The position numbers and the translations under genes are program-made. A stretch of 64,000 nt of DNA from Mayamaea pseudoterrestris (Eukaryota). Shown piece after piece: positions 46,755 through 63,502 of this stretch. Each line of letters starts with the position of its first letter. Positions within the stretch are counted from its first letter, which is position 1. Below the pieces are notes generated by a model that had not been told where the DNA came from, did not search any database, and saw only the letters and a list, made by a program, of their open reading frames with translations. The DNA is taken from contig BROI01000003.1 of assembly GCA_027923505.1 (NCBI GenBank), positions 930,001-994,000 of the forward strand, in the 5' to 3' direction.

Positions 46755-47888
46755 ATGTCGAGTGATCGTATGCAGGCTATACCAGTTTCACTAGGCAAGC
46801 CGAGCTTTCGCCGACGCATCGAAGACTACTATTCCATTGTAGCTCCAGATCAGCTTCAAAATGACTGGAATACGCGATTTCGACAGATATGGGACATCTA
46901 CGGAGGAAGTCACGAAAAAGAAGGAAAACTGAGAGCGAATTTGGACAAGAAATATGGCACGACGGTCCGTTTCCTGACCGTCGCATCAAAGGAGAAATGC
47001 AACAGGATCGGAAATTCTTCGCAAGACGATTTCCAGCACCGACAATTCACAGAAGAGAGCTTTCAGCTAGCCGATAATCAACGTGGCAGTGGTGTCTTGG
47101 ACTGCTTATCCGTCAACTTCGATCCAGCAGCGTTCCTTGGCGCTCCTCTGGATGACGTTTACGAGGCATGTCGCTGGCTTGAAACGTCTAATAAAAGAAT
47201 GGATCATGTTGAAATGATCCGTCCATACCTTCCAAAGTCAGATCCAATGTTCATTCCACGTCCATTGGGGCGAAGGCGGGTGCTGCCGCCGGCTGTCGCG
47301 GCCAAACCAAAGCCTATACATGCTTTTGTCAGCCTCGCAAACCCACTTAAGAATGGACCCTTTTCTATCCTTTACAATAGCATGCTAAACCAAGTTCGCA
47401 TAAGAGTGGTTGTAAGTTATGTTGATTGCATCCGTGGTACCCTCACTGGGTTTATCACTGGATTCGACAAGTTTTTGAATATGATTTTGCGTGATGTTGA
47501 AGAAGTTTATTCTCCTCGACGCGTGGGCGCTGGTGACAGAACCAAATTGGAACTGGAAATGGAGCGTCGGCTGAGCGGCGCTTTTAACTGCAATGTCGCA
47601 GGGCAATGGATGCTTCGACACCGTAGATTGGGGCAAATGATGGTGCGTGGCGAAACGGTCGTCTCTGTTTACCAAGCGGACCATGAAAAGTCGACGTGGC
47701 CGGTTACTTCTAAGTCTCCTGACTGTTCACTTTATAGACATTCTGCGAAGAAAAATATACCGCCAGAGGAGCGTATCGGCACGCCTGGGTCGCTATTGCA
47801 CGCATCACAAAAAGTGGCGTGTGAGCCCCCAAGGATGGACGATGCAAGACTTGTGGCACAGCTCCGCAACTCGTGCTCTATAAGGTAA
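46755..47888 (+). CDS. LSM11: LSM11-like Sm-fold protein
   Basis: Split Sm fold (IRGTLTGFITGFDKFLNMILRDVEEVY ... RRLGQMMVRGETVV) preceded by LDCLSVNFDPAAFLGAP and GPFSIL, resembling LSM11-specific N-terminal motifs. Confidence 0.7.
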   Translation: MSSDRMQAIPVSLGKPSFRRRIEDYYSIVAPDQLQNDWNTRFRQIWDIYGGSHEKEGKLRANLDKKYGTTVRFLTVASKEKCNRIGNSSQDDFQHRQFTEESFQLADNQRGSGVLDCLSVNFDPAAFLGAPLDDVYEACRWLETSNKRMDHVEMIRPYLPKSDPMFIPRPLGRRRVLPPAVAAKPKPIHAFVSLANPLKNGPFSILYNSMLNQVRIRVVVSYVDCIRGTLTGFITGFDKFLNMILRDVEEVYSPRRVGAGDRTKLELEMERRLSGAFNCNVAGQWMLRHRRLGQMMVRGETVVSVYQADHEKSTWPVTSKSPDCSLYRHSAKKNIPPEERIGTPGSLLHASQKVACEPPRMDDARLVAQLRNSCSIR

Positions 47889-48027
47889 CATACCAAATTG
47901 GCGTTAGTTGTAAGCGTGTAAATTGCTAATCCATGAGTTATCTTTTACTTCATTGGTAATTACATCAATTGCTTTAAACACCTTTCCAAAAGGAAGGGCG
48001 ATGAGGCGAAGGCCCGTCTTGAATGCA

Positions 48028-49551
48028 TCAATGATCCGATCGACACGATGCCACAAGTACCGCCAGAGCAGTAACAATTCCAACAACCAAGCAGCTTCGA
48101 AACCAAAGTCGTTGCGTGGATTTGATAGGTTTGGTCTTCCCGGGAAATCGATCGTGAAACTTGCCAGAAACACAAACATTCCTCCAGAAAAGCTCCACCT
48201 CTTCTGTTGCTCGTGTGACACCATCTTCAGATCGAAGCTTGTCTCCCAATTCAAAGGCTCGCTTGATCATCTCAAAATCGCAAGCGCACCTGACTATTGC
48301 ATCACCGAGCTCATCACTCGTCACTTTTTGAAACTGCTTGTCAAATCCAACACCAACCCCAGACTTCCTCAAGAAATAGCTGAAGTCCCATTGATCTGCA
48401 AAGACTGGCGTAATTATCGACGGTACACCGGCACGCAGAGCAGCAGTCGTTGTGCCTGCTCCGCCGTGATGAACAATTACCCGCACACGTGGAAACAGCC
48501 ACTCGTGCGGCGCCTGCTGGACAAATAATATATTCTTCTTGGCGTATTCCAAAACGACGGGCTCAACGTCGCTCCACTCGAGAAGTTCCATAGATAGGCC
48601 CGCAAAACCACCAAGAACAATGGCACGGTAGCCAGATCGGAAAGCTGCTCGGGCACAATACTTTACCATAAAGTCCGATGAGCGGCATATCATGCTTCCC
48701 CATCCAAGATAAACGGGCTTTTCACCACCATCCATAAACCCCTGTAGCCTTTTAAAATCTTGCTGGCCACCAAACCGGTCAATCTTTTCAAGTTGCAACT
48801 CTCGCTTGATAATGGTTGATCCCACGATACGAGTCAGAGGATGGGCCAGCTTTTCGGAGCCGCCACCAAGGATATTAGCTATCTCGAAAGAAGTGAGGAT
48901 TACTATTGGGAACTCGGGCTTCCGCATGTTCGCCATGAAGGAAGCTAATGGATACTTTTCGAGAATGTCAGCATTCAAGCACTTGTCGTACGCCCGATAA
49001 TTTTCAAAAATGGCGCTAATCAAGACGTTATGAAACAGATAGTAGCTCAAGCCAAACGGGAGTTTCGGTATGCCAAAAGGCGGTTGTTCTGGGTTGAAGA
49101 TTACAGCAATCGTTGACAGGAAAAGATATGGAACCTTGTGACGAATGGCGAGATACCAACCAAAATATTGGCTAAGAGGCATGGTCAAACAAAGGTCAGG
49201 TTGTCCCTCGTTTTCAATCTCCTTTACGAATGCATCGCAATAAGCAGGGACCACCTTCTGAGATTCCTTGTTCATTCCTTTGAAGAATGTCATGATGCTG
49301 CCTGTCATCATTGCCTCCATCATCTGTGGACTTGATTTCATGAGCGCATCGACATCCCGTTCGCCCATGGCGACCCCTTTGCATCCAAACGACTCCGCAA
49401 ACGAGACGAACGACCGCCCATTGCAGAAAAATGTTACTTTATAGCCTTTCTCGACTAGCCCATGGGCAACGGCAACGTATGGTTGAATATCGCCGCGGGA
49501 TCCGAGCGCAAAGACCCAGATTTTCTTGAGTTCCGTCGGGTTACTCGTCAT
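48028..49551 (-). CDS. Sterol 3-beta-glucosyltransferase-like (GT1/GT28-N) with C-terminal TM
   Basis: GSRGDIQPY, YLGWGSM, APHEWLFPR, VHHGGAGTT, PVFADQ. Confidence 0.85.
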   Translation of the reverse strand: MTSNPTELKKIWVFALGSRGDIQPYVAVAHGLVEKGYKVTFFCNGRSFVSFAESFGCKGVAMGERDVDALMKSSPQMMEAMMTGSIMTFFKGMNKESQKVVPAYCDAFVKEIENEGQPDLCLTMPLSQYFGWYLAIRHKVPYLFLSTIAVIFNPEQPPFGIPKLPFGLSYYLFHNVLISAIFENYRAYDKCLNADILEKYPLASFMANMRKPEFPIVILTSFEIANILGGGSEKLAHPLTRIVGSTIIKRELQLEKIDRFGGQQDFKRLQGFMDGGEKPVYLGWGSMICRSSDFMVKYCARAAFRSGYRAIVLGGFAGLSMELLEWSDVEPVVLEYAKKNILFVQQAPHEWLFPRVRVIVHHGGAGTTTAALRAGVPSIITPVFADQWDFSYFLRKSGVGVGFDKQFQKVTSDELGDAIVRCACDFEMIKRAFELGDKLRSEDGVTRATEEVELFWRNVCVSGKFHDRFPGKTKPIKSTQRLWFRSCLVVGIVTALAVLVASCRSDH

Positions 49552-49877
49552 GCTCAATGGCTGGCTGTATCGTGAGATTTTGAGATGTGAGCTGAATGAC
49601 CGTTTCTGTCGCAAGATATACCGCTATTAAACTTTAGAGCCTTCTAATCTGACCACTCCGTATGTGAGCTACACCCTCTTTTTTCGTTCAAGGGGATTGC
49701 ACATACGCCTTCGCTGCCGTGGAAGGATAGCTCGGCGAGGATGTTGTGATGTTTCCATTTCCAATCGATCCCGTCGGAAACAGTCGCACCGGTTCTTCTA
49801 AATGACGCAACAGATCACGCGTCGACGTGCATTTCCGACCATGGCGGCTGTCAGTATTGTTGGCACCACTTTCAGCC

Positions 49878-52800
49878 ATGTCTGGCGCGAGTACCAGTAC
49901 AGCGATTGAATGGGACGAAGCGACGGTGAATGCATCGGATCTATACTGGAGTGGCTTGGAGGCTTTCGTTGAGCGCACGAATGAGGGCAAATCGACCTTG
50001 ACGTATTCATCCACAATTTACTTGATAGCGACGTTCGCGCAAATACTCCAAGACAAGATAATCAAAAGGCTACAAAGTGAAAAAGCTAGCAATCAACTAG
50101 CTTGTGATGAAAGACTGTGTGTGCCGGTGGCTGTGGCCATTCCAGAAGGCTTCTATTTGCCACTCGCCATTGCAGCCGTTCATTCGCTGAATCGAGCCAT
50201 TGCATTTGATGACGAAGGCAGTAGCTTCCACGTTGTATTGGTACCTCTTGATCCATCCGATGCACCAAAACGAGTGCAAAGCATGGTGATTGATGCTAGA
50301 CCGCTTTTTATCTTGACGGCTGCGCCTTGTGATTACGACCGACTGCAAAATGCCATTGCGCAGTCGGACAATGAAACTGACATAAGTGAGGCTCCATCTC
50401 CTCTTTACCGAGCGAGAAACGTCATGCTTTTAAACATTGCAAGCATTTTGGCGGGTGTCAGCGTTCCAGAAAAACAGGCCGTGGCTGCTATAGACCAACT
50501 GTTGCGCAAGACGTCTGGATCGCTCATGGCCACGATTTGGGAATGTGGACGAATCTTGAACAATATATCGACGAACTCTACTCTGCTCGACGACGATGTC
50601 AATATTATATCACATCTTTGCTTCACATCTGGTACTACCGGCGCTCCCAAGGGTTGCATCAGCTCTCGCGACTCGCTGCGTAATTATTTGAACGCGAAGA
50701 ATCGCTATCATGAAGATGATCACACGTCACGAGTCTTGCTCGCAAGCAGCATCTCATTTGACCCATGCCTTTCAGATATACTCGCAACCTTTTCTAACCG
50801 AGCGACTTTGGTCATTGCTCGCCGAGAATCATTGGTGCAAAACCTCATTTCCATTTTGCAGACGATGCATGTCACCCATTGCCTATGCACACCAACCTTG
50901 TGGAGTACCACGCTGTTAGCCCACGATTTTACATCTGAACAGTTACACGAGAGGGTTTCAAACTTGCAATGTGTTGCGCTAGGAGGTGAAGCAATTTCTG
51001 CAAAGCTACTCCGCGCGTGGGTCAAACCGAAATTGAAGAGTGACTTTTGCTTGTGCGCAACCTATGGCGTGACAGAAGCTTGTGTCTACCAAACGTTTGG
51101 CGCAATTGACAATGATGACTGCAGCACAAGTGTTGGTGCCCCTTTTGACGGTATGGGCGTTCGTATCTGCGACGAGGCAAATCAAGATCAACTTGTCGAT
51201 GTTAAATCTTGGTTGCCGCCAGAAAATCCAGTTCACGGCGAAGTTGTGCTGTTCGGCAATCAACTTGACAGACATTCCTCATACTTGTGTCGGCACGACT
51301 TATCGGCAAAGAAGTTTGTTTGCGATGGCAATGTCTATTATTACCGGACGGGCGACAGAGGGTTTATACACCCCGAAACGAACAATCTGCACATTTTGGG
51401 AAGGATTGCAGGAGAAAGTGGCATGGTGAAAATCAATGGTATAAGGATCGAGCTGTCTGAGATTGAGACTGCTATCGTCGACCAGAAAGATGCTAACTGC
51501 GTCGCCATTGATTGTATGGCTGTCGCCGAGCAATTGCATGGCGAGACGACGAGCGCCTCAGCTGTTGTGTGCTACGTTGTGTTGAGCGCTGCCTGCTTGA
51601 CGCAACTGGGGTTGGACAGAGCGCTTCCAGACAGTGGTGATATCTGTTCTTCTGGTCCGCTTCTTACTTTACTACGTGAAAGATGCAAGAATGCAGTTAA
51701 GATTATGCCATCCTCCTTCATCATTCTACCGAGAATTCCACTGTCGCCAACTGGCAAGCGCGATAGGCTAGGGGCTTCAAAGAAGATAGAATGGATCTCG
51801 CTCAGCTCTCTGATTTTGAGTGAAAAGAATTTGGTTTTGTTAGAGAAGCATGGCAGGTTAGGACAGCTTCTCTCTGACCTCATTGTAGATTGCTTAAATC
51901 TCCAGCCCGTCCAAAAGTCAATGTTAACAATTCACGCAACATTTGGAATGGCTGGTGGTGATTCACTGGCGGCCACTCGGGTCACGCGAACGCTCTATGC
52001 GCTGCACCACAATGTTCCCAACTCGCGTTACATTGGCGGAGAGTTCGGTGTTCTCGATGGGCCTTTCGCGGCTAGGCATTTGATTGCTGCCAAGGACCTT
52101 GGAAGCTACGTGGACTGGCTGGAGAGTAATGATGTCTGCCTGGGCGATGCGAAACGCTTTGATGTATTACAGGGAGGTGCTTACGGAGACAAGGCTGGAG
52201 TCCTTGACAAAGATCAAGATGTTATTGCGCGCGACGAAGGCGAGGAGTTGTATGGAGCTTTGTTCGAGTCAGCAACTCAAGGGTATACCAATATTGGCCT
52301 AGCTCTGCTTGATGTTGGTGCTGACCCATCGCTGGGGGCGCATGGTGGAAGACTGGGTAAGGTCGGTTCTCGCTTAATGCGCAAACAGGTTTTTCGCTCC
52401 AGTCCAATGCACCTGGCATGTGTGCGGGGCGATTCTCTTTTGATCCTTGGTTTGATCGAGAAAGGAGCCGCAATTAACAGTCCTGATGCCTCTGGTCTCT
52501 TTCCCTTGCATCTGCTGGCTTCAGGCGAACCAGGGAACTACAGTAAGGTGGATGACTTGAGAAGAATCGACTGCGCGAAGGCTCTCTTGGATGCGGGCGC
52601 TCCTCTTTCAATGAAAGACGGCCAAAAGCAGACAGTCATTCACGTTGCAGCGCGATCAGGTCGACGTGAATTTCTTGATCATATTTTAAAGCAATGGACT
52701 GAGATATATCTGGAAGTGGACGAACGCAAGGCGGATAGTTTGGACTGGCGAGACTCTTTCAACCGGACAGCAGTCCACTGGGCCGTTTTAAATGGTCATG

Positions 52801-52979
52801 TAGAAACGCTGAGTATATTGCTACGAATGGGTTGCAAGCCCGACCCTGCGAAGCTGAAACATGCAAAATCATCTAGTTTGACCCTCGAGACGCCAGAGGA
52901 AATGTGCTGTCGTCTGTACGAAAAAGAAGCTGCTGTCGGCAAACAAATTTTCAGCTTACTAAAGAAATATAGTCTGTAA
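49878..52979 (+). CDS. NRPS-like protein: adenylation domain - thiolation (PCP) - ankyrin repeats
   Basis: FTSGTTGAPKG, SFDP, GGE, YGVTE, YRTGD, VKINGIRIELSEIE, PLSPTGK; GGDSLAA; ankyrin motifs SPMHLAC, FPLHLLA, TVIHVAA, TAVHWAV. Confidence 0.88.
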   Translation: MSGASTSTAIEWDEATVNASDLYWSGLEAFVERTNEGKSTLTYSSTIYLIATFAQILQDKIIKRLQSEKASNQLACDERLCVPVAVAIPEGFYLPLAIAAVHSLNRAIAFDDEGSSFHVVLVPLDPSDAPKRVQSMVIDARPLFILTAAPCDYDRLQNAIAQSDNETDISEAPSPLYRARNVMLLNIASILAGVSVPEKQAVAAIDQLLRKTSGSLMATIWECGRILNNISTNSTLLDDDVNIISHLCFTSGTTGAPKGCISSRDSLRNYLNAKNRYHEDDHTSRVLLASSISFDPCLSDILATFSNRATLVIARRESLVQNLISILQTMHVTHCLCTPTLWSTTLLAHDFTSEQLHERVSNLQCVALGGEAISAKLLRAWVKPKLKSDFCLCATYGVTEACVYQTFGAIDNDDCSTSVGAPFDGMGVRICDEANQDQLVDVKSWLPPENPVHGEVVLFGNQLDRHSSYLCRHDLSAKKFVCDGNVYYYRTGDRGFIHPETNNLHILGRIAGESGMVKINGIRIELSEIETAIVDQKDANCVAIDCMAVAEQLHGETTSASAVVCYVVLSAACLTQLGLDRALPDSGDICSSGPLLTLLRERCKNAVKIMPSSFIILPRIPLSPTGKRDRLGASKKIEWISLSSLILSEKNLVLLEKHGRLGQLLSDLIVDCLNLQPVQKSMLTIHATFGMAGGDSLAATRVTRTLYALHHNVPNSRYIGGEFGVLDGPFAARHLIAAKDLGSYVDWLESNDVCLGDAKRFDVLQGGAYGDKAGVLDKDQDVIARDEGEELYGALFESATQGYTNIGLALLDVGADPSLGAHGGRLGKVGSRLMRKQVFRSSPMHLACVRGDSLLILGLIEKGAAINSPDASGLFPLHLLASGEPGNYSKVDDLRRIDCAKALLDAGAPLSMKDGQKQTVIHVAARSGRREFLDHILKQWTEIYLEVDERKADSLDWRDSFNRTAVHWAVLNGHVETLSILLRMGCKPDPAKLKHAKSSSLTLETPEEMCCRLYEKEAAVGKQIFSLLKKYSL

Positions 52980-53263
52980 GCAACTAACGGTTTATAAACA
53001 AGGAATGAATACCTGGTTACCGGGAGCATTTCCAGTGAAAAGTCCTTTGCTATACGAGTATCGTACGGATACCCTGTGAAGAACCAGTGCGACACAAATG
53101 TGTTGACGAGCTTGAATCGTCGCATCCGTACAGTACCGGGAAATTTTACCATGGCAGAAACCCTCATATCAGGAATTGTTTTGGTGATGATAGCCGCAAC
53201 TGTTACTAATTCGATACTGTAAATAAGCTTTTGAACTACGCGACAAACAGCTATAAATTCATT

Positions 53264-55489
53264 ATGTATCCGACGGAGCAGCCAAGCGCCAAGTGCGACC
53301 TCATCTCTCGCCGGCTGCCAGTCAACGAATCATTGAAGGAATTTTTTGGGTTCGACTCCGCAGCCTCTCTCTTTCAAGCACTGAAACAACCTCTTCCTTC
53401 GGATTTGAAGCTGTTGTCAACCCTGTACATTTATCCGTCGGATGCACCGTCGCCTCCCATGAGTCGCTCGCTCGCAGTCATTGGCGTTGCGGATGTTTCG
53501 CTCAAAGTGGTTCGACAATTGATAGGCGAGGCTATCGACGAAGAGAATACACAGTTACCAGCGTGTTTAACAAAATCGACCGTGGCTGTTCGACGGGCTG
53601 ATGGTGCGCACAAAAATGACATGGAGGAACGACACTTGCAAAACTCGACTGTCTTTTCCAAATTCATGCGACGTCTTGCGAGCGAAGGAGTTGTTGCGAT
53701 TATTGCGCCCGACAAATTTGGTCGATTTGGTATATTGTCGCCGTCATCACGCCTGATGGCTGACGATGCTAGTACTTCTAGTCATGATTACTACGCCCGT
53801 GTATATCTTGGAAGAGTTGATACAGTCAAGGAGTACTTGACTCAAGGAGAAGAGCCTCAAACTCCGCCTTTCACCGCGCAGGACGACAGCGCTTCGTCGA
53901 GCGGACTGTGGGCGCCACCTGGAGCATCATCCTTAGCTGACGATTCTGCAAACGGGCTCTGGCAGCCGCCGACGACTGATGACGCTGGAAATGGACTTTG
54001 GCAGCCGCCTGGCGCATCCGGCGCAGCAATGAACTATGATTTTGGAGATGCTGCCGCTGCAACGTTTCCTTCAGATACAACAACAAGCGACGTCAGCAAC
54101 AAACGAAAACTTGAAGACTTTCATGGCGACTCGGGAGCCGCTGCTGCCGATGCGTTCTATTCGTCGTTGACCCGGACGCTAGAAACACGAGCAGATTCTC
54201 GCATCTACCACCTGCGAGCTTACAATGGATGGGTAAAGGCGACGCAGATTCAAGAATTGAATCCAAAGACAAAGAACAATCGTGATGGCCCTCTTCGCAT
54301 ATTGGATTTGGCTTGTGGCAAGGGTGGTGATTTGGGGAAGTGGACTTTGCATCAACGAGGCGTGCGCAACTACGTTGGAAGCGATGTAGCCCGAGGGTCA
54401 CTCAAGGATGCTGCCATTCGCGCCCGACGGATGCGAGGCAAGCTCAAACAATGTACCTTTACCTGTGCCGACCTTGGAGCTGACGTGCCTGGGCGATTAA
54501 AGGGACTAAATCACAAGTACATGCAAAAACTACTGACTTGGTCGCTCCAAAATGAATCGGCGGGTAAAAAGTCAGATCCTATCTTTCAAATGGTGCGAGG
54601 CGGAGGCATATCCTTAGACGATCACTTTGACGTGGTCTCGATCCAGTTTGCAATTCACTATATGATGTCGTCGAAGCAGCGGGCCCGACGTTTCTTTCAA
54701 ACAGTCAGTGAGCTTCTCGATGTAGGCGGCAATTTGATCGTGACCACGATTGATGCACGTCGAGTCGTATGGCATCTGATGAACATGGGAATCGACCTAC
54801 ATTTTGATGATGTTTCCAACCATGATGAAGGCGACGTTGTAATTAGCGTTGGGAACGGCGCATGCAAGCTGCGCTTTCAACGCCAGGTCGTCAGGCGCAT
54901 ATTCACGGCAGACACCAACGACCCAACAGGGGATGACATGTTTGGCTTAGAGTACTCATTTACGCTGGTGGAAGGCGATGATCATTCGCACGGTGTCGGC
55001 GATGCTGTAAACCTTCCTGAGTGGCTAACTCCAATACCTGTCCTTGTTGCGCTGGCCAGTGAAGCTGGCCTTGAGCTTGAGTCAGCTGAAAATTTTCACG
55101 AGTTCTTCCATGCACGAAGCAATCCGCTGGTAAACGTCGCTGCCCATAGCAGTATGTACAGTATGAAAGCCTTGAATAGGAACGGAACCATCGCCTCTGA
55201 TGAATGGGAGATAAGTGGCATGTATGTCGCTGTCAAATTTCGCAAAGTACGAGATTCGACGATGCAGGTGGAAGAAAGCGACGAAGACGAGACTGACGAC
55301 GAAGACGAGAGGGGAGCACCGGAAGCTCCGCGCGATATTGATCCCAAATTGAAAATAAAACTCATGCCAATAGCCTTGATGAAAGCGAAGAAAACGGTCG
55401 GCGCCGATGTCTGGCAATCCCTTGCCAGTGACGAGAAGAGCCGCCTGACTGAAATTGAGTTGGCGAAGCTTGCATCTGCATCGCCGTAG
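53264..55489 (+). CDS. RNMT: mRNA cap guanine-N7 methyltransferase with N-terminal extension
   Basis: SRIYHLRAYNGWVK, ILDLACGKGGDLGKW, FDVVSIQFAIHY, FGLEYSFTL, LPEWL. Confidence 0.9.
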   Translation: MYPTEQPSAKCDLISRRLPVNESLKEFFGFDSAASLFQALKQPLPSDLKLLSTLYIYPSDAPSPPMSRSLAVIGVADVSLKVVRQLIGEAIDEENTQLPACLTKSTVAVRRADGAHKNDMEERHLQNSTVFSKFMRRLASEGVVAIIAPDKFGRFGILSPSSRLMADDASTSSHDYYARVYLGRVDTVKEYLTQGEEPQTPPFTAQDDSASSSGLWAPPGASSLADDSANGLWQPPTTDDAGNGLWQPPGASGAAMNYDFGDAAAATFPSDTTTSDVSNKRKLEDFHGDSGAAAADAFYSSLTRTLETRADSRIYHLRAYNGWVKATQIQELNPKTKNNRDGPLRILDLACGKGGDLGKWTLHQRGVRNYVGSDVARGSLKDAAIRARRMRGKLKQCTFTCADLGADVPGRLKGLNHKYMQKLLTWSLQNESAGKKSDPIFQMVRGGGISLDDHFDVVSIQFAIHYMMSSKQRARRFFQTVSELLDVGGNLIVTTIDARRVVWHLMNMGIDLHFDDVSNHDEGDVVISVGNGACKLRFQRQVVRRIFTADTNDPTGDDMFGLEYSFTLVEGDDHSHGVGDAVNLPEWLTPIPVLVALASEAGLELESAENFHEFFHARSNPLVNVAAHSSMYSMKALNRNGTIASDEWEISGMYVAVKFRKVRDSTMQVEESDEDETDDEDERGAPEAPRDIDPKLKIKLMPIALMKAKKTVGADVWQSLASDEKSRLTEIELAKLASASP

Positions 55490-55674
55490 CCTGGCTTTTC
55501 AACTATAAAACTGGACTCTCCTGCCCAGACATTACGGCAGCCCTATCTTCACATTTCCTGTCTACCGATCAATTGCAGACACATGAATCGGCAATCGAGT
55601 GATTCGTGGTATTAGTAAATTTGATTGTATTATATAATCCATTCACTTATGTTTACGGTAGATCGTTAAATATG

Positions 55675-57531
55675 TTATTTCGCCATAACATCCAAAGAAT
55701 TTTTAGCTTCAGACATGGCCTCGACAAATGATATCGCAGCTTCATTTTGAAATTTCCACTTGTGATGCCAAGGACACCATCCTTCGGGCCAGCCGACATG
55801 ACCACCACGTTGCGTTAATAGCAAGACGAGGTATCCATCACCCATACGAACGAGCGAATCGGGACGCATGAATCCTTCATTGCTAACAATCGTTCTGAAC
55901 GTAGATATAGGATCGTCAAACGCTTGTAGTACGCATAATGGGATCGCCAACTCTGTGACCCGTGGTCGGACACTGAGAATTTCGAAAGACGACTCGCGAT
56001 GTTCCCAAGGAACATCACCAAGGGCTCCAGACTCCGAGTAATAGTGCATTAGGTCTTGATAACCGTTGTACGCAACCGCGGCGTATTGATCTGCTTCAAC
56101 AACATTCTTGGCGCGAAGTAGAGCAAGCATATCATCCCTAGACAACCGGTGCGCGAGTCGGTTTGCCCATTTTGCAGCCAGCTGCGAAAATCGAGTCAAG
56201 TCACCAACCATTGGAAGCCAAAGTCGCTTAGCCCGCTCATTGAAAGCCTCATGACGACAGTCCATAGCCCCTGATACAGAAAACCCAACATCCAGAGCGC
56301 ACGAGTTACCGTAAGAGACTGCATAGTTGTTCAGAACAATCGCTCCCATGGAATATCCCACGCCTCCCAAGATTTGACCGTCTTTAAGAACATGCGCTCG
56401 AAGATATGTCGCAGCCTCATGAACGTCTGTGAGCCTTGCTGCGTGAAATATGTTCCAACCTCGAATGGGTAAATCCATGAGACCCCTGGAAACCATGACA
56501 ACAACAGTTGAGCCGCGATGGGTGGCTCGATGAACAAAATCTTTGACATATTCCTCGTTAGAGCCGCCGTTTATACCGTGTAGTATAAGGTAAAGAGGCG
56601 GAGGCACCGCACTACAATGTGCATCACTGCAAGTCGCTCGCAGAGATTCATCCACGGAGAAGTAAATGTCCAGAGCCAAAACCTCGCCATCGGAAACATC
56701 TAAAAAGACCCTCGTTGACGGTAAACCGTCCACTGATTGCGAGTAGAGGAAAAAGGGTAAACCCGTTCGAGCATCACCAGTCAACATCCATGGCGTTGGA
56801 TTAGAATAAGTGTAATTGTCCGGCGGCCAAACATGCACCAAGCGATCAATCAGTGTGTTATTGGGATTGTAGTACAAGCCAGCCGAAACGCGAATGTCAA
56901 CATCGTCTGGGTTCCCAAAATAAAAGTGTCCTCGATGAAAGCAAAGGGAAACAGCAAGTGTCGCAACAAAGCCCAACATCCAGCGCGTCCTTTCCAGTTC
57001 GTATTGGAAACACAAGCGCAGCGACATGATCATTGCAGCAAGGAACATTGTGCATCCATACAATGGTCCGAATTCGAGAACATACATGGAATCCGTCATC
57101 AAAACAAGTGCAAACGAAGCCGTTGATATGATCGTAAATGACAAGTGCCCTCTGCTCGTCCGTGTCTTGTTATCTTCAGCAAGTAAAGCATTAACATTAT
57201 ATTTGAGGAGCAAGCAGACACCCAGTGGTGCGAGAAATCCAGCCAAGAGTCGAAACCACAAATCAGCAAACGACGCAAGGACCGGAAGGCGCATGTGCAA
57301 GTATGTGATCCATGCTTCCACTCGCGATTCATGTAAGTCTTCTAGTAGTGATCCCATGGGCGGCACATCGACGAGTGTAAAGTTAAAATCGTCAGCGCAG
57401 AATGGATGCATCCTTGGAAGATCCAAGGCTTGCAGAAAGGACTGCGCGGTATGACTCAGCGATTCCGTCGGCCGGTCCTTGATGTTGCGCTCCATGGCGG
57501 AGCAAAAGTCCTCGATGGAAAACAAGGGCAT
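55675..57531 (-). CDS. ABHD1/3-YheT-like alpha/beta hydrolase with N-terminal TM region (paralogue A)
   Basis: LHGINGGSNEEYV, GYSMG, AFDDP, GGHVGWP. Confidence 0.85.
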   Translation of the reverse strand: MPLFSIEDFCSAMERNIKDRPTESLSHTAQSFLQALDLPRMHPFCADDFNFTLVDVPPMGSLLEDLHESRVEAWITYLHMRLPVLASFADLWFRLLAGFLAPLGVCLLLKYNVNALLAEDNKTRTSRGHLSFTIISTASFALVLMTDSMYVLEFGPLYGCTMFLAAMIMSLRLCFQYELERTRWMLGFVATLAVSLCFHRGHFYFGNPDDVDIRVSAGLYYNPNNTLIDRLVHVWPPDNYTYSNPTPWMLTGDARTGLPFFLYSQSVDGLPSTRVFLDVSDGEVLALDIYFSVDESLRATCSDAHCSAVPPPLYLILHGINGGSNEEYVKDFVHRATHRGSTVVVMVSRGLMDLPIRGWNIFHAARLTDVHEAATYLRAHVLKDGQILGGVGYSMGAIVLNNYAVSYGNSCALDVGFSVSGAMDCRHEAFNERAKRLWLPMVGDLTRFSQLAAKWANRLAHRLSRDDMLALLRAKNVVEADQYAAVAYNGYQDLMHYYSESGALGDVPWEHRESSFEILSVRPRVTELAIPLCVLQAFDDPISTFRTIVSNEGFMRPDSLVRMGDGYLVLLLTQRGGHVGWPEGWCPWHHKWKFQNEAAISFVEAMSEAKNSLDVMAK

Positions 57532-58150
57532 CGTAGTGTAGTGCTGCTGGCCGCTTGAGATCTGAAGTCTGAAGAGCACGCAATCCCAAACAATCAAAGC
57601 AAGCAGTCAATTGAGGATATTATTCGACAAGCAAACTACCTTACGTTGTGCAAGCCTTCATCTTTTATATAATATATGGAGAGGGAAAATGGAGAACTCC
57701 TCGTTCGTCGAAGCGAACCAGAGATCCGCGAATCGCCGTTCGCTGCTTGCAACGCCGAGGTTCGCAGAGTCGTTCGAAAGAAGATCTCAATCTCCCATTT
57801 TTGCTGCTCAGTAGAGAATGGAATTACAAGGGCAATTAAGATTGTCCAGGAATAGCAAAGACGAGTTGATCAGATCATCATGGTCCCACGGAACGATCGC
57901 GTCAACTTTGGAGATGGTGAGTGAGCTTCTAAAACCGCTACGACATACTGGGCTGATTTTGATTGGCTTAGCGATACACACTAAGACACCATTGAAACCG
58001 CGAAAGCGCGCCATGACGACGCGAGGCTCTTTTTCGTGATGAATTCGACCATGGCCGGAAACATGCATGTACGCCTGTAAAGTCTCAACCCCCGCCCTTG
58101 GAGCATAAAGCATTTACGAAACCATCAACTTCTCGAATAGAAATTCAAGC

Positions 58151-60010
58151 ATGTCTGACTGGAGCATCGAGACTTGGTGTGCAAGTCAACAACCTTCCGA
58201 TATTGGCTCACTCGATGCATCGGCACAATCGTTCTTGGGTCAGCTAAATCTCGACGCCATTCATCCATTTTGTAAAGATACTTCATTTTACTATGTGGAA
58301 GGTGTTCCACCACAAGGTCCACTCTTGAGTCACGAGCATTTGGAGACAACGCTGGATGTCGCGCTGACAACCTTTTTTCGAGTCTGTCCTCCCTTGCTGG
58401 CCATGGTCGAGCTATGGCTGCGGCTCTTTGCGTTTGTCTGTGCGCCTCTTGGTTTGGCGCGCTTGTCATGGGAGATTTTGGGCGAAAAAACTTCGAAGCA
58501 GGATGGTCCAAGGCATATTCGCGTAGCTACGCTACTCGTTGCGTTGTTGACGCTTGCCTCATCGGTGGTGTTAACTACAGATGACCTTTATCGACTTGAA
58601 TTTGAAACTTATTATGGATTAAACATGCTCATCCTATCGGTTATTTTGGTCATAAGGCTGGCTGTCATGTATCGTCGACGACTATTGGTCATTGCTACGC
58701 TTGGATCTGTGGCATTGACAATGTACATGTTGTTCGATGCCACTCAAGGCACCTTCATGACGCTGCACCACGCTCTTCCGCAATTCAACGAAGGGTTATA
58801 CTATGACGAGTCCAATACATTTGCTCAGCGCGTCCAAGAAAACTGGCTAGAAGCGACTCGGAGCTACCTTCCGCCAAAAGCGACAGTGTGGATGCCGACT
58901 GGTGATTCGCGAACGGGTCTTCCATTCCTTTTGAACCATGTGGACAGTCCCTCCTGGACTCGCGTCTGGTTATCCATTTCGGACGATGACGAAGTCGTGG
59001 CAATCGATATTCACTTTCCAAACGGCCGGCACGACACTATTCAGCCTCTTTTTCTTGTCTTGCATGGACTGAATGGTGGCTCGCAGGAAGAGTACGTCAA
59101 GGACTTCACACATCGCCAAGCCATGGAGAATGCGACGGTTGCTGTCATGGTCGCTCGTGGACTCATGGACCTTCCGGTGCGAGGGATGAACCTCTTTCAT
59201 GGCGCGCGGTGGACGGATGTGCACGTTGCTGCGACAGCCCTACGAAAGGGCTTGGTTGAAAAACAATTGCTTGCCGGCGTCGGCTACTCCATGGGTGGAA
59301 TCATCTTGCCAAACTATGTGGCTAGGTCGGGAGCGGACTGCGCACTGGACGTGGCTGTATCCGTGTCGGGTGGCTTGGATATGCGATACGAAACAAACTT
59401 TTCGCGGGCGCAGCGCCTGTGGCAACCAATTCTCACGCAGGAGCTACGTGAGAAATTTGTCGTTGGCAAATGGGGCGAGCGTACAAAGGCGAGGCTGACT
59501 ACGCAACAAATGAAATACATGATGCGGGCTTACCATATCTCCGAGATCGACGAAACAGCGGTGGTTGCTTATAACGGATTTCGCAACCTCGACCATTACG
59601 TGAGTTCTTTTTGTTGCTTTACTTGTTCATTCGTCGTGGCATCTCACTTACTCTGGCATTGTTAGTATTCAGAGATGTCTGCATTTGGCGATATTCCCGC
59701 CAAAAGTCACAATGCATCCGTGGCGACTGTGGGGCGAATCGATGGCGTGTCAATTCCCCTGCTAGTGATACATGCACTGGATGATCCCTTAATAACTTGG
59801 CAGACGGTTGCATCCAATTATGGCCAACTCCACCCTAAAGCATTGACAGCACGAGCTCACGGCAACATATTTCTTCTGCTCACTAAACGTGGAGGGCACG
59901 TTGGCTGGCCCATGGGCTCGTTTCCTTGGGTTCACAACTGGAAATGGATGAATGATAACGCGGCATCGTTCGTCTACGCCGTTCAGCAAGCCAAAGAGGA
60001 GGTTGATTAA
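58151..60010 (+). CDS. ABHD1/3-YheT-like alpha/beta hydrolase (paralogue B), intron 59600-59665
   Basis: LHGLNGGSQEEYV, GYSMG, ALDDP, GGHVGWP; splicing restores LDHY|YSEM. Confidence 0.85.
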
Positions 60011-60102: not shown

Positions 60103-61401
60103 TTACGGTATTGGCGAGCGGAGGTTCCATTCCAACCCGCGCTCGACAGTTTTGATTTTATCATAGCGCAGCGACAACATAATAATTGCTTTTCCAATTT
60201 CTTGAATTGACTGCACGTCAGGAAAGCCTGACATGGACTTAAAAATGGAAGCCAATCCATTTTCCATCCATAGCAACAACCAGCATGTGGATTTGCACCG
60301 AAAGGGACAAGCCGTAAGATGCCACAACGCACCCAAACTGGTGTAGACAACGTCACGCGCCAGCGATACGCCTTTCTTTTGTAGGGCAGTTTCAAGAACA
60401 AACACAATGCTTCGCAAAACCGTAAGAGTATCAGCTTCAAGTACGTTACGTAGGGCCGGGCCCGAAGGATGATAAAACTTGCCACCATTTTCTACATCAA
60501 CGCCGTTAAAGTCGTCAGGGACACAATCAAAAGTAAGCTTAATCCCCGCGACAATAGCCACCAAAGCAGCTTGTTGAACAAGCATAGAATCGCTCCATAT
60601 ACTAGGCTCGCACAGCAACGAGGAAATGCGAACAATCCCTGACTGCGTGAAAATTCCACTTCCGTAAAATAACAACTGCGTCCGCTCAAGTTTATTGACA
60701 ATCTCATCCACCGAAAGGCTCTTGTCGTGATATGCAAAAACCGAAATGTTTGTCAAGCAGTCGGCGACTTCAATCTCGTCAGTGGAGGTCAGGGCCTTAG
60801 TCAAGAGCGCAGTAATCGTAGGTCGACTCACAACAGGCGATGGACTTAAAAGCAAAGCCGACTTTAATGGACGGCAAAACTTCCGCGAATTGAAATTCAC
60901 ACGTCGGTTTGAAAGCTGAAGAGATTGCTGACAGTGATTATTCGGTTGCAAGGGTGTTACATTTAGTAGTGTCGAGCGAGGTGTCACAGCAGTTGTCTTC
61001 TGCTTTGTTGTTGAACGCTTCTGTCTAGCGCCGGTAACTCCAAAATCCAAAGTTTCGGGACTCTTCATCTGATCGCTCTTTCGAGAATCGTTTCCTCTCA
61101 AGGATCGATCACGACTCATGTCGGAAGTATGAGACATTGCTGCTGCATCCGAGCGCTTATCGCTTGTTTCAACTTCAAATTCGCCTTGGAAGCGGCGGCG
61201 AGCGTCGGTATGCTCTTTCAAGAAACTCTTCAACAACGGCGACATCATTAATGTATTTCCATCTAAGCTATCAGAAGGCGAGACGAAAATCTCAGGGTGT
61301 TTATTGTATCGAGGCAGATGGCAAGGCATCTTGGAATCAGCATCGTTTAGTATATTATTCAGATCCGACGCAGCCCGCTTGAATGGAGATGGACGAGACA
61401 T
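60103..61401 (-). CDS. Uncharacterised protein; disordered N-half, helical (ARM-like?) C-half
   Basis: 432-aa ATG-initiated ORF filling the gap between genes; no firm motif. Confidence 0.55.
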   Translation of the reverse strand: MSRPSPFKRAASDLNNILNDADSKMPCHLPRYNKHPEIFVSPSDSLDGNTLMMSPLLKSFLKEHTDARRRFQGEFEVETSDKRSDAAAMSHTSDMSRDRSLRGNDSRKSDQMKSPETLDFGVTGARQKRSTTKQKTTAVTPRSTLLNVTPLQPNNHCQQSLQLSNRRVNFNSRKFCRPLKSALLLSPSPVVSRPTITALLTKALTSTDEIEVADCLTNISVFAYHDKSLSVDEIVNKLERTQLLFYGSGIFTQSGIVRISSLLCEPSIWSDSMLVQQAALVAIVAGIKLTFDCVPDDFNGVDVENGGKFYHPSGPALRNVLEADTLTVLRSIVFVLETALQKKGVSLARDVVYTSLGALWHLTACPFRCKSTCWLLLWMENGLASIFKSMSGFPDVQSIQEIGKAIIMLSLRYDKIKTVERGLEWNLRSPIP

Positions 61402-61843: not shown

Positions 61844-63502
61844 CTAGTATATTGCTTCACGCGGTATATCAGCGACCAGTTGCCTGCGTCGTTCGTTGCG
61901 TCGCCGACGTTGCGCGTTCAGCACCAGAATCAAGCAAAGCCGCGTAAGTGGCAACGCAAAAAAGAGCACCGCGTAGAAGCGAAGAATTGGCAAAAGATAT
62001 CCCTTCAAGAAACCGCCGAGAAAATTCTCTTCTTTCAGTTCCAGCATTCCACCTGGATCAAAAGACGGTCCGAGCATCATGACGCCGACAAGGTTAAGGG
62101 CGCCAAGGGCGACGCACTGCGAAAATAGATTGAACGGAAGATGCGTCAAGCGAAACAGCGATTCGGAAAGGTAACAAGGAAGCTCCAATGTTGATTTCGT
62201 TCGTCTCAACGAATCTTGTCGGTATAGAATCGATCGCCAGTCACTTTCGTCTTGCTCAGCAATAAACTCATGCGATCGTAACGCAACTTCAGATTCTGCC
62301 AAGAGCTCTGGGAAAGTAAAGGTTGCATCCTGCAAAGACGTTTTAGAACTTGAAGGTTGGCCATTGAAATGAGCCACGATGAGCAGCCCTTGTTCCGTGA
62401 TCCGTGCCGCGTCGCCCACATGGGCTGGCGGATAGTCTGCGTACGGACACAATTCGAGCAAAGTCACGCCAGTATTGCTGGACAGATGCTTGACGATATA
62501 CGCGGCCCGCATATGCCATCGTTCCACTGGTGTCGGGCCCGGCTGGAACGGAGAAGGACCAAACAAGAATTCAACTGCCACTGAAAGAAGACCTCGATGT
62601 TCCGCCGAAACGTCGGATGTCGTCCTGACTATGGCTTCATCGGAATCGCTGCGTCGAACGAGGCTTACGCCCTCTACGCCATATGCGCTGTCATGTATAG
62701 CGACGGATCGCCCACCCCATCCTCGAAAAGCTCTTTGTCGCCGTCTTGAAAGCTGACTGACGCGCAACCAATAAAAAGCATTCATCGGATTGCCGCAACA
62801 AACCGACAGGCACAAGGATGTGTCGTAGGCCATCTCTCTGTAGAAACTGCCTTCTCCTCCATCATCGGGCCCGAATAGAGCAAAACACCACAACAGCTGT
62901 CGCATAGTATATAGGAGTGTTTGGATCTGACGCATTACGCGCTGGGCGCCATTGTTACTGTTTCCACTTCGACCAAGCGCAATCAATGCCGCAACTAGCC
63001 CAGCAATTGCAGCAATGCACAGAATCAAGAGCGAAAGAATCAAGCCAAATGCAGTCACTATCTGAACGACTCGAAGAGCCACATATCCAATTCGAACCAA
63101 AGCTTCGCGAATACTTTCTGCTCGCCGCGCCCTCATGGCGCGCTTTGCAAAATCATGTGGAAAGTAAAATACCATTACTGGTTGAGGACTCTTTGGCAAG
63201 GATTCAAACTCAAACCATGCCCCATGCTCTCCTCCTCCAACGGCTGTTAGTAAACCACAAAGTTCAGCGCAGGCGTCTTCAACTGATATGCCAAGATCTG
63301 CGGCCAAGCGAGCGGGCCGAATGATGAACGCGTTATCATTCGTCTTTTCCTTACAAGATTGAACGACTTCAATGACTCGTTTGTCGAGAGGACGAGGGAT
63401 ATTCAATTCATCATTTGAAGCAAGATCACTGTCTTTGTTTTCAGTAAAATCATCGTTTCGATCAATCGATAGTGACGCCACGCGACTGATGGCCATCGCC
63501 AT
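61844..63502 (-). CDS. Membrane protein resembling the plant At5g03900/cyanobacterial conserved family
   Basis: LAADLGISVEDA..L, VFYFP, TM block, EFLFG..ERW, ELCPYAD, HFNGQP, FTFPEL; recognised from memory. Confidence 0.55.
   Translation of the reverse strand: MAMAISRVASLSIDRNDDFTENKDSDLASNDELNIPRPLDKRVIEVVQSCKEKTNDNAFIIRPARLAADLGISVEDACAELCGLLTAVGGGEHGAWFEFESLPKSPQPVMVFYFPHDFAKRAMRARRAESIREALVRIGYVALRVVQIVTAFGLILSLLILCIAAIAGLVAALIALGRSGNSNNGAQRVMRQIQTLLYTMRQLLWCFALFGPDDGGEGSFYREMAYDTSLCLSVCCGNPMNAFYWLRVSQLSRRRQRAFRGWGGRSVAIHDSAYGVEGVSLVRRSDSDEAIVRTTSDVSAEHRGLLSVAVEFLFGPSPFQPGPTPVERWHMRAAYIVKHLSSNTGVTLLELCPYADYPPAHVGDAARITEQGLLIVAHFNGQPSSSKTSLQDATFTFPELLAESEVALRSHEFIAEQDESDWRSILYRQDSLRRTKSTLELPCYLSESLFRLTHLPFNLFSQCVALGALNLVGVMMLGPSFDPGGMLELKEENFLGGFLKGYLLPILRFYAVLFFALPLTRLCLILVLNAQRRRRNERRRQLVADIPREAIY

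Follow-up and report, generated by a model that had tools for sequence, protein, structure and literature searches.

The window analysed here, a 64,000-nucleotide stretch of the genome of Mayamaea pseudoterrestris (assembly GCA_027923505.1, contig BROI01000003.1, positions 930,001 to 994,000 of the forward strand), carries on its plus strand a gene for a nonribosomal peptide synthetase (NRPS)-like protein in which an adenylation (A) domain and a carrier (thiolation, T) domain are followed by an ankyrin (ANK) domain, an order written hereafter as A-T-ANK. The window is eukaryote-like in composition with a guanine-cytosine (GC) content of ~48%, and both of its strands contain long intron-free open reading frames (ORFs). 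The frame of interest is open from a GTG over positions 49827..52979 of the window and has its first ATG at 49878, from where it continues as a single uninterrupted frame up to 52979 (+) without the need of an intron and encodes a protein of 1033 amino acids, designated P0001. As the homologues begin at the same place, with their starts lining up with the N-terminus of P0001 (M..AIEW....YW), the ATG at 49878 was taken as the right start. The ORF is not a chance feature, as it runs for 1033 codons and has homologues at E=0. The features of the gene are collected in Table 1.

Table 1. Features of the A-T-ANK gene and its product, with window positions, strand and the evidence for each assignment.
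Feature	Position in window	Strand	Evidence
Whole coding sequence, 1033 codons and stop	49878..52979	+	Frame; homologue starts; contigs of three runs
Adenylation domain, residues ~8-640 (large N-terminal part and small C-terminal subdomain, 541-640)	49899..51797	+	Pfam; sequence and fold matches to NRPS A structures
Motif A3 / P-loop ISHLCFTSGTTGAPKG, residues 244-259	50607..50654	+	Sequence; alignment to ApnA A1 and LgrA
Asp295 of SFDPC (motif A4), equivalent of the amino-group-binding Asp	50760..50762	+	Aligned to FD of ApnA A1 and LgrA; Asp in 43/43
Lys627 of PLSPTGKRDR (motif A10)	51756..51758	+	Aligned to PLSPNGKIDR of ApnA A1; Lys in 43/43
Divergent carrier (T; peptidyl carrier protein, PCP) domain, residues 652-755	51831..52142	+	Model helices; carrier-only profile; PF00550 in 12/43 members
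Ser696 of GGDSL, predicted phosphopantetheine site	51963..51965	+	Invariant; opens helix 2 in both models
Variable, partly disordered linker, residues 756-786	52143..52235	+	pLDDT <50 at 762-784; mean conservation 0.17
Ankyrin domain, residues 787-1033, five repeats and C-terminal helical hairpin	52236..52976	+	Pfam Ank families; model; Foldseek; groove conservation

The N-terminal two thirds of P0001 form an A domain. Pfam AMP-binding matched residues 119-460 with 113.4 bits (cut-off 29.9) and was present in all 43 members of the family that were aligned. The core motifs, which we take to be A3 TSGTTGxPKG, A4 FDx, A5 YGxTE, A7 YRTGD, A8 GRxxxxxKxxGxRIEL and the Lys of A10, were all found and their columns were invariant; within motif A3 the residues S245, H246, T250, S251, G252, G255, P257 and K258 did not vary, and an insert at residues ~161-240 of the domain was poorly conserved. 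HMMER aligned the domain to ApnA A1 (E 1.9e-27) and also to LgrA, pairing FTSGTTGAPKG with YTSGSTGKPKG, SISFDP with SISFDV and SFSFDG, and PLSPTGKRDR with PLSPNGKIDR. A full-length AlphaFold model, built on the 43-sequence alignment with a predicted local distance difference test (pLDDT) of 82.6 and a predicted template-modelling score (pTM) of 0.70, retrieved NRPS A and A-PCP structures through Foldseek at E ~1e-23, and its comparison with 1amu gave a template-modelling (TM) score of 0.75 by target length.

The ten specificity positions were placed on the motifs of P0001 by the GrsA numbering as we presume it to run, and not by computation, which gave a pocket of D295, P296, S299, L336, A367, G369, T395, V403, Y404 and K627. 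Nine of these positions were identical in 43/43 aligned members and S299 in 41/43, and no charged residue occurred among the eight pocket side chains lying between the Asp and the Lys (positions 236-331). As the pocket is fixed while the members are only ~40% identical overall, it points to one conserved substrate bearing an amino group.

The carrier domain that follows was recognised from its conserved serine and its predicted fold. The GGDSL motif occupies residues 693-697, and its Ser696 was identical in every one of the 43 members. Carrier helices were modelled at residues 662-673, 696-711, 732-737 and 741-750, the second of them opening at Ser696. A phmmer search of residues 645-760 against the PDB sequences returned 0 matches at E<=10, and all three of the divergent forms described below matched Pfam PP-binding at E ~4e-3 (3/3; ~17.7 bits, cut-off 20.8). 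A hidden Markov model (HMM) was built from the carrier columns only and run on 85 NRPS megasynthases and on their reversed sequences as controls; it matched 63/85 of the megasynthases (full-sequence E<1e-3) and 0/85 of the controls, and in 342 of the 346 matched stretches G[GA]xS was present, recurring at intervals of roughly a module. On this profile evidence the domain is a genuine, though divergent, carrier. It also bears a conserved insert of ~20 residues between helices 2 and 3 (residues ~712-731, HHNVPNSRYIGGEFGVLDGPF), which is discernible even in the green alga Tetraselmis. The face between carrier helices 2 and 3 is used by partner domains in known NRPSs.

Beyond a linker of low conservation, the C-terminal quarter of the protein is an ankyrin domain. 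Five Pfam Ank families scored over their cut-offs at residues ~896-989, among them Ank_2 (50.6 bits, cut-off 27.3) and Ank (44.7 bits, cut-off 21.1). A separate model of residues 640-1033 (pLDDT 88.3) resolved five repeats, each a pair of helices, of which the third and fourth bear inserts; the C-terminal helical hairpin (ETP..M..RLY..) was conserved across the family. Solely ankyrin and DARPin structures were among the Foldseek matches listed for this model, 6ne2_B giving a TM score of 0.86 and a root-mean-square deviation of 3.1 A over 243 columns. In the 43 members the most frequent residue of a column accounted on average for a fraction of 0.61 in the A core, 0.64 in the carrier and 0.58 in the ankyrin domain, and of 0.17 in the linker. 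For the target-contacting groove we assume the positions of designed ankyrins to be 2, 3, 5, 13 and 14; across repeats 2-5 this fraction averaged 0.72 at the groove positions and 0.79 at the framework positions. Among the groove residues F839, R926 and D959 were invariant and S841, Q918, W961 and R963 nearly so, with R926, D959, W961 and R963 retained in Tetraselmis and in the GC-rich metagenome form L045. A cysteine, Cys848, was also invariant at position 12 of an ankyrin repeat. A complex prediction between the A-T part (residues 1-755) and the ankyrin part (785-1029) scored 0.00 and, having been run without controls, gives no evidence either way.

No domain for release or condensation accompanied these parts. 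Pfam families for condensation (C), thioesterase (TE) and reductase (R) domains were absent from P0001 at E<=1, where AMP-binding and the Ank families were the sole matches, and the NCBIfam model of the Lys2 type, TIGR03443, reached 41.3 bits against a cut-off of 1030.1. The models were helical or disordered throughout beyond residue 640. In a search with residues 640-1033 for longer fused forms all 33 matches were generic ankyrin proteins and none was a T-ANK protein. Three assignments were thus set aside: a canonical NRPS module, as C, TE and R are lacking; Lys2 or alpha-aminoadipate reductase, as TIGR03443 stays far under its cut-off and no reductase family is found; and an A-T-R1-R2 enzyme of the PtNRPS1 type, again as P0001 has no reductase family.

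The first-pass annotation of this DNA, made from the letters alone, had read the same architecture: it noted the FDP aspartate, the lysine of A10 and the carrier Ser as present and C, TE and R as missing. The Pfam searches, alignments and models bear it out. Its start at 49878 agrees with the homologue N-termini, its placement of GGDSL at 51954-51968 was exact, and its estimate of about 4-5 ankyrin repeats settles at five in the model of residues 640-1033. It had taken the ankyrin part as belonging to the same protein, which holds, as the frame is single and is kept as a unit in many species. The possibility that a structure model would reveal a hidden release domain had also been raised there; neither a propeller nor a C, TE or R fold appeared in the two AlphaFold models and their Foldseek searches.

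The A-T-ANK architecture is shared by a large family. The homologue search returned 262 proteins at E<=0.001, and in the best 120, on which the counts rest, AMP-binding and Ank occurred together in 105, the other 15 being mostly short or cut. Identity to P0001 ranged from 32 to 60% among these best 120 of 262 homologues, and the fusion was intact in 43/43 aligned members. The taxonomy of the family rests on the organism names in the homologue listing and on the Tetraselmis label. All of the organism-naming rows among the best 120 were diatoms (11/11), namely Nitzschia, Epithemia, Fistulifera, Skeletonema (two species), Thalassiosira (two rows), Cyclostephanos (two rows), Stephanodiscus and Attheya. 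A profile search of 1.84 billion representatives yielded, among the 150 matches listed, 65 family-like proteins of 527-1291 amino acids; the other 85 were megasynthases of >5000 amino acids with summed A-domain scores, which left the nearest outgroup hidden. The metagenome scan recovered 156 relatives, of which 80 were kept, and three deeper metagenome forms had the same domain order: L040 (929 amino acids) and the GC-rich L042 (1071 amino acids) and L045 (969 amino acids). A profile of the two GC-rich forms retrieved mostly GC-rich actinobacterial NRPSs, the only A-T-ANK proteins being P0268, P0273 and P0294.

P0294 is a protein of the green alga Tetraselmis striata (EukProt label Tetstr1) and is collinear with P0001 in three blocks, with 34% identity over 183 amino acids of the A core, 29% over 273 amino acids of the A C-terminal subdomain and carrier (insert included), and 31% over 253 amino acids of the ankyrin domain and tail, where KQ..H.AARSG, DW.DRW.RTP.HWAV.NGH and S..TSL.ETP...R.YG are shared. 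In a FastTree tree of the 43 sequences (1031 trimmed columns, rooted on Tetraselmis, branching read without support values), the GC-rich forms and then L040 fell outside the diatom clade, within which the Thalassiosirales clustered together. As the tree places the sequences in this way and a relative exists in Tetraselmis, the fusion looks old, vertically kept in diatoms and not confined to them.

Two variations within the family were also observed. The non-diatom relatives (P0294, L042 and L045) deviate at two of the ten pocket positions, the stretch that reads FDPCLSD in diatoms being FDVSLGD in Tetraselmis and (F/W)DP..GD in the GC-rich forms; as two pocket positions differ, the substrate may differ between the diatom and non-diatom lineages. 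L040 (3880-6669, +), which branches deepest on the diatom side, has TSGTTKSPRL at the P-loop in place of TSGTTGxPKG and retains FDPC, YGLTEAC, GGDSL and the ankyrin domain; it may represent a lineage or a paralogue in which adenylation is altered or lost.

The architecture is already registered in databases, and what is new is the lack of a known function. Two clusters of the Atlas, with 66 and 60 members, correspond to the family, one of them machine-named 'Ligase/ankyrin repeat fused protein family protein', and the fusion has also been machine-named under JGI names in the homologue listing. The first-pass annotation had named an existing functional characterisation of the architecture as a refutation; full-text searches, which covered neither subscription-only papers nor supplements, turned up no such study.

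Read cover was available from four public runs (X1-X4) of one study, the kind of library being unrecorded, and no RNA run is recorded for the stretch. The cover of X1 was continuous across the region and DNA-like. In X2-X4 it fell to zero in the intergenic bin 49488-49771, and the contigs of these runs began at 49843-49849 and ended at 52900-52997 with no joints seen, a pattern that is a weak hint of transcripts. Single contigs bridged the junction between carrier and ankyrin domain in X4 (51027-52900), X3 (51848-52967) and X2 (51155-52567). The X1 contigs were 1-2 bases short relative to the window at 11 places within 47500-56000. Five of these deletions lay inside the ORF (50663, 51228, 51978, 52438 and 52712) and were absent from the X2-X4 contigs covering them; they look like assembly or long-read errors and not real frameshifts.

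The genes around the A-T-ANK gene are of the housekeeping type, comprising a mitochondrial carrier, a TPR/SAP protein, an epimerase, an FGGY kinase, an LSM protein, a GT28/UDPGT-like transferase and an mRNA cap N7-methyltransferase. A biosynthetic gene cluster was rejected, as the neighbours are of this type and, within the often short flanks of the related loci, are not conserved beside relatives. The nearest upstream gene, a GT28/EryCIII/UDPGT-like glycosyltransferase at 48028-49614 (-), is divergent and lies 263 bp from the A-T-ANK start; it occurred beside 0/80 related loci, and this arrangement is probably local. An LSM-domain ORF of 377 amino acids (46755-47888, +) lies two genes upstream. 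Homologues of it (32-41% identity) stand directly upstream of and divergent to the A-T-ANK gene in four metagenome loci, at 8453-9598 in L023, 1868-3013 in L024, 2573-3883 in L020 and 2563-3873 in L021. These are probably two pairs of near-identical contigs (L020/L021 and L023/L024), and the recurrence looks more like a remnant of synteny than like the sign of a functional link. Downstream, four long ORFs of 432-640 amino acids have no Pfam family at E<=0.001 (55675-57597, -; 58151-59665, +; 60103-61401, -; 61844-63502, -).

Among known systems, the A-T part is nearest to bacterial enzymes. By language-model features of residues 1-760 the nearest clusters were bacterial stand-alone A-T didomains (score 0.98), which share with P0001 the order of an A domain and a GGxS-bearing carrier as well as the lack of C and TE, and bacterial NRPS A domains were its best PDB matches in both sequence and fold. 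The bacterial didomains have only 526-677 amino acids and no ankyrin domain, whereas the carrier of P0001 is far more divergent and has the 20-residue insert. Bacterial stand-alone A-T didomains usually sit in biosynthetic gene clusters, unlike the gene of P0001 with its housekeeping-type and unconserved neighbours.

A comparable protein of diatoms is PtNRPS1 of Phaeodactylum tricornutum, which has the order A-T-R1-R2, makes tryptophanol and is widely kept in diatoms (PMC13194791). Like P0001 it comes from a diatom and consists of one NRPS-like module with A and T domains; it releases its product via two reductase domains, whereas P0001 has no reductase. The word 'ankyrin' does not occur in PMC13194791. 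Among dinoflagellates, single-domain polyketide synthase (PKS) and NRPS proteins that are joined to ankyrin, HEAT or PPR repeats are described in two reports (PMC6361889, PMC8283056), and resemble P0001 in placing an algal trans-acting domain on a repeat scaffold. They differ in being monofunctional domains, such as FabD-like acyltransferases, and not the A-T and ankyrin combination of diatoms, and their function is also not known. The logic proposed below for P0001 has a counterpart in ACBD6, whose ankyrin module binds N-myristoyltransferase 2 (NMT2) (PMC7046191). There too an activated-acyl module is fused to an ankyrin module that binds a transferase. The likeness is one of logic only, as the carrier part of ACBD6 is non-homologous, the acyl-CoA is bound non-covalently, the ankyrin motifs are two and adenylation activity is lacking. 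ACBD6 nevertheless offers a precedent for an acyl carrier joined to an ankyrin domain that docks a transferase.

From these results we infer the substrate class, an amino acid, the docking on the groove and the off-loading in trans, which together compose a reading that we hold with about even confidence: P0001 would be a cytosolic module that loads one amino acid as a thioester and from which a protein docking on the ankyrin groove takes off the aminoacyl group. The A domain would adenylate one particular amino acid, which would then be moved as a thioester onto the phosphopantetheine arm at Ser696 of its own carrier. The ankyrin domain, on its flexible linker, would form a docking platform for the protein that removes the aminoacyl group, be it a trans-acting enzyme or an acceptor, as neither release nor condensation can be carried out by any domain of P0001 itself. 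A cytosolic location is suggested because an N-terminal hydrophobic signal is absent and the A domain begins within ~10 residues of the Met. In favour of this reading count the intact A motifs and fixed pocket, the invariant carrier Ser, the lack of a release domain, the similar degree to which the A, carrier and ankyrin domains are conserved and their being kept fused, together with the family-specific insert on the putative partner face of the carrier, the likeness of the A-T part to bacterial stand-alone didomains and the precedent of ACBD6. What suggests that the ankyrin module docks a partner is the conservation of its groove positions.

Several results weigh against this reading. The best NCBIfam match of the A domain, TIGR01733 (amino acid adenylation domain), scored 172.5 bits, under its cut-off of 317.4, so that the domain has to be regarded as a divergent member. 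Pfam PP-binding gave no match on P0001 at E<=1, and at E<=0.01 PF00550 was found in 12/43 members and failed in 31/43, because of which the phosphopantetheinylation of Ser696 is assumed. No partner for the groove was identified, and a contact within the protein or a partner for localisation would explain its conserved residues just as well. Conservation of neighbours was likewise lacking. Of the 11 neighbour ORFs in the window only the LSM ORF recurs, at 4/80 loci, and when 221 ORFs from the flanks of 50 family loci were clustered, no cluster beyond the family itself was present in >4 loci, a negative that is weak as the flank reached >=2.5 kb on a given side in only 18/50 loci.

The strongest competitor, to which we give an appreciable but clearly smaller likelihood, leaves the A-T part working as proposed and lets the ankyrin domain place or regulate the enzyme instead of recruiting an acceptor. 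It might anchor P0001 to a membrane, the cytoskeleton or an organelle surface, or hold it in auto-inhibition via its own carrier, with release left to a carrier-recognising partner or a small-molecule nucleophile. Ankyrin repeats are a generic protein-binding scaffold, so a conserved groove fits any fixed ligand, and partner recognition could lie in the conserved insert of the carrier itself; the full-length pTM of 0.70, reached despite the disordered linker, may in addition hint at a fixed packing of the domains. The keeping of the fusion in diatoms and a green alga, on the other hand, argues for a tie between the ankyrin domain and the chemistry, but it does not separate the docking of an acceptor from the placing of the enzyme, and direct counter-evidence is absent. 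More specific, and improbable in our estimate, is a protein-modifying enzyme in which a target bound in the groove would be aminoacylated on a side chain or terminus, directly or via one helper. Its anatomy would be the same as in the favoured reading, and the ankyrin domains of the palmitoyltransferases zDHHC13/17 recruit substrates for transfer from a thioester. P0001 has no evident transfer residue or fold, as the carrier is followed by a plain ankyrin stack, and the invariant Cys848 stands at a repeat position that is presumably a buried Ala as a rule; no target is known. The corresponding proposal for the whole family, a non-ribosomal protein-aminoacylation machine of algae whose groove residues F839, R926, D959, W961 and R963 would hold the target, we likewise consider a long shot.

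Two further explanations appear weaker still. The first-pass annotation had seen a likeness to AASDH, recalling an FDP/GGE context in that protein, and P0001 could on such grounds be an algal counterpart of AASDH/ACSF4-U26 that activates beta-alanine or a similar substrate, with the propeller swapped for ankyrin repeats. The C-terminal domain of AASDH is a PQQ-like beta-propeller. Both are eukaryotic single-module A-T proteins that end in a non-catalytic-looking repeat scaffold without a release domain, and ACSF4-U26 is called a beta-alanine-activating enzyme, its cellular function being not known, in PMC10531068. Yet the C-terminal domains and the cluster features lent the likeness no support: P0001 has an all-helical ankyrin stack and no propeller, the best 30 named clusters for its A-T part were all bacterial (AMP-binding and PP-binding with or without AMP-binding_C, none with PQQ), and its best PDB and NCBIfam matches were bacterial NRPS A domains, so that we rate the relationship as quite unlikely. 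An artefact or relic would mean either that two genes have been merged into one frame or that the carrier has decayed and the protein is just an acyl/aminoacyl-AMP or CoA ligase bearing ankyrin repeats as a tail; the missing Pfam carrier match and the absence of a recorded RNA run speak for it. It is nevertheless hardly credible, as the frame is uninterrupted, the same order of parts recurs in 105 of the best 120 homologues on many contigs, the carrier-ankyrin junction is bridged without joints in three runs, GGDSL is invariant and the carrier is the most conserved segment (0.64).

The favoured reading, a loading module relieved of its amino acid by a docked protein, bears on the biology of diatoms, which have very few NRPS-like genes, PtNRPS1 being the only one with a known product, a growth-active signal (PMC13194791). 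The A-T-ANK family adds to these an NRPS-like A-T loader with a conserved ankyrin domain in place of a release domain. As its pocket is unchanged across centric and pennate diatoms and it has a collinear relative in a green alga, the module probably fulfils a basic role in the cell rather than that of a strain-specific toxin. Identifying the ligand bound in the groove would reveal the way in which an activated amino acid leaves its carrier without C, TE or R, and work on the family could shed light on the equally unexplained AASDH of animals. If protein aminoacylation were true, it would signify a post-translational pathway without a described enzyme of this kind, shared by diatoms and at least one green alga.

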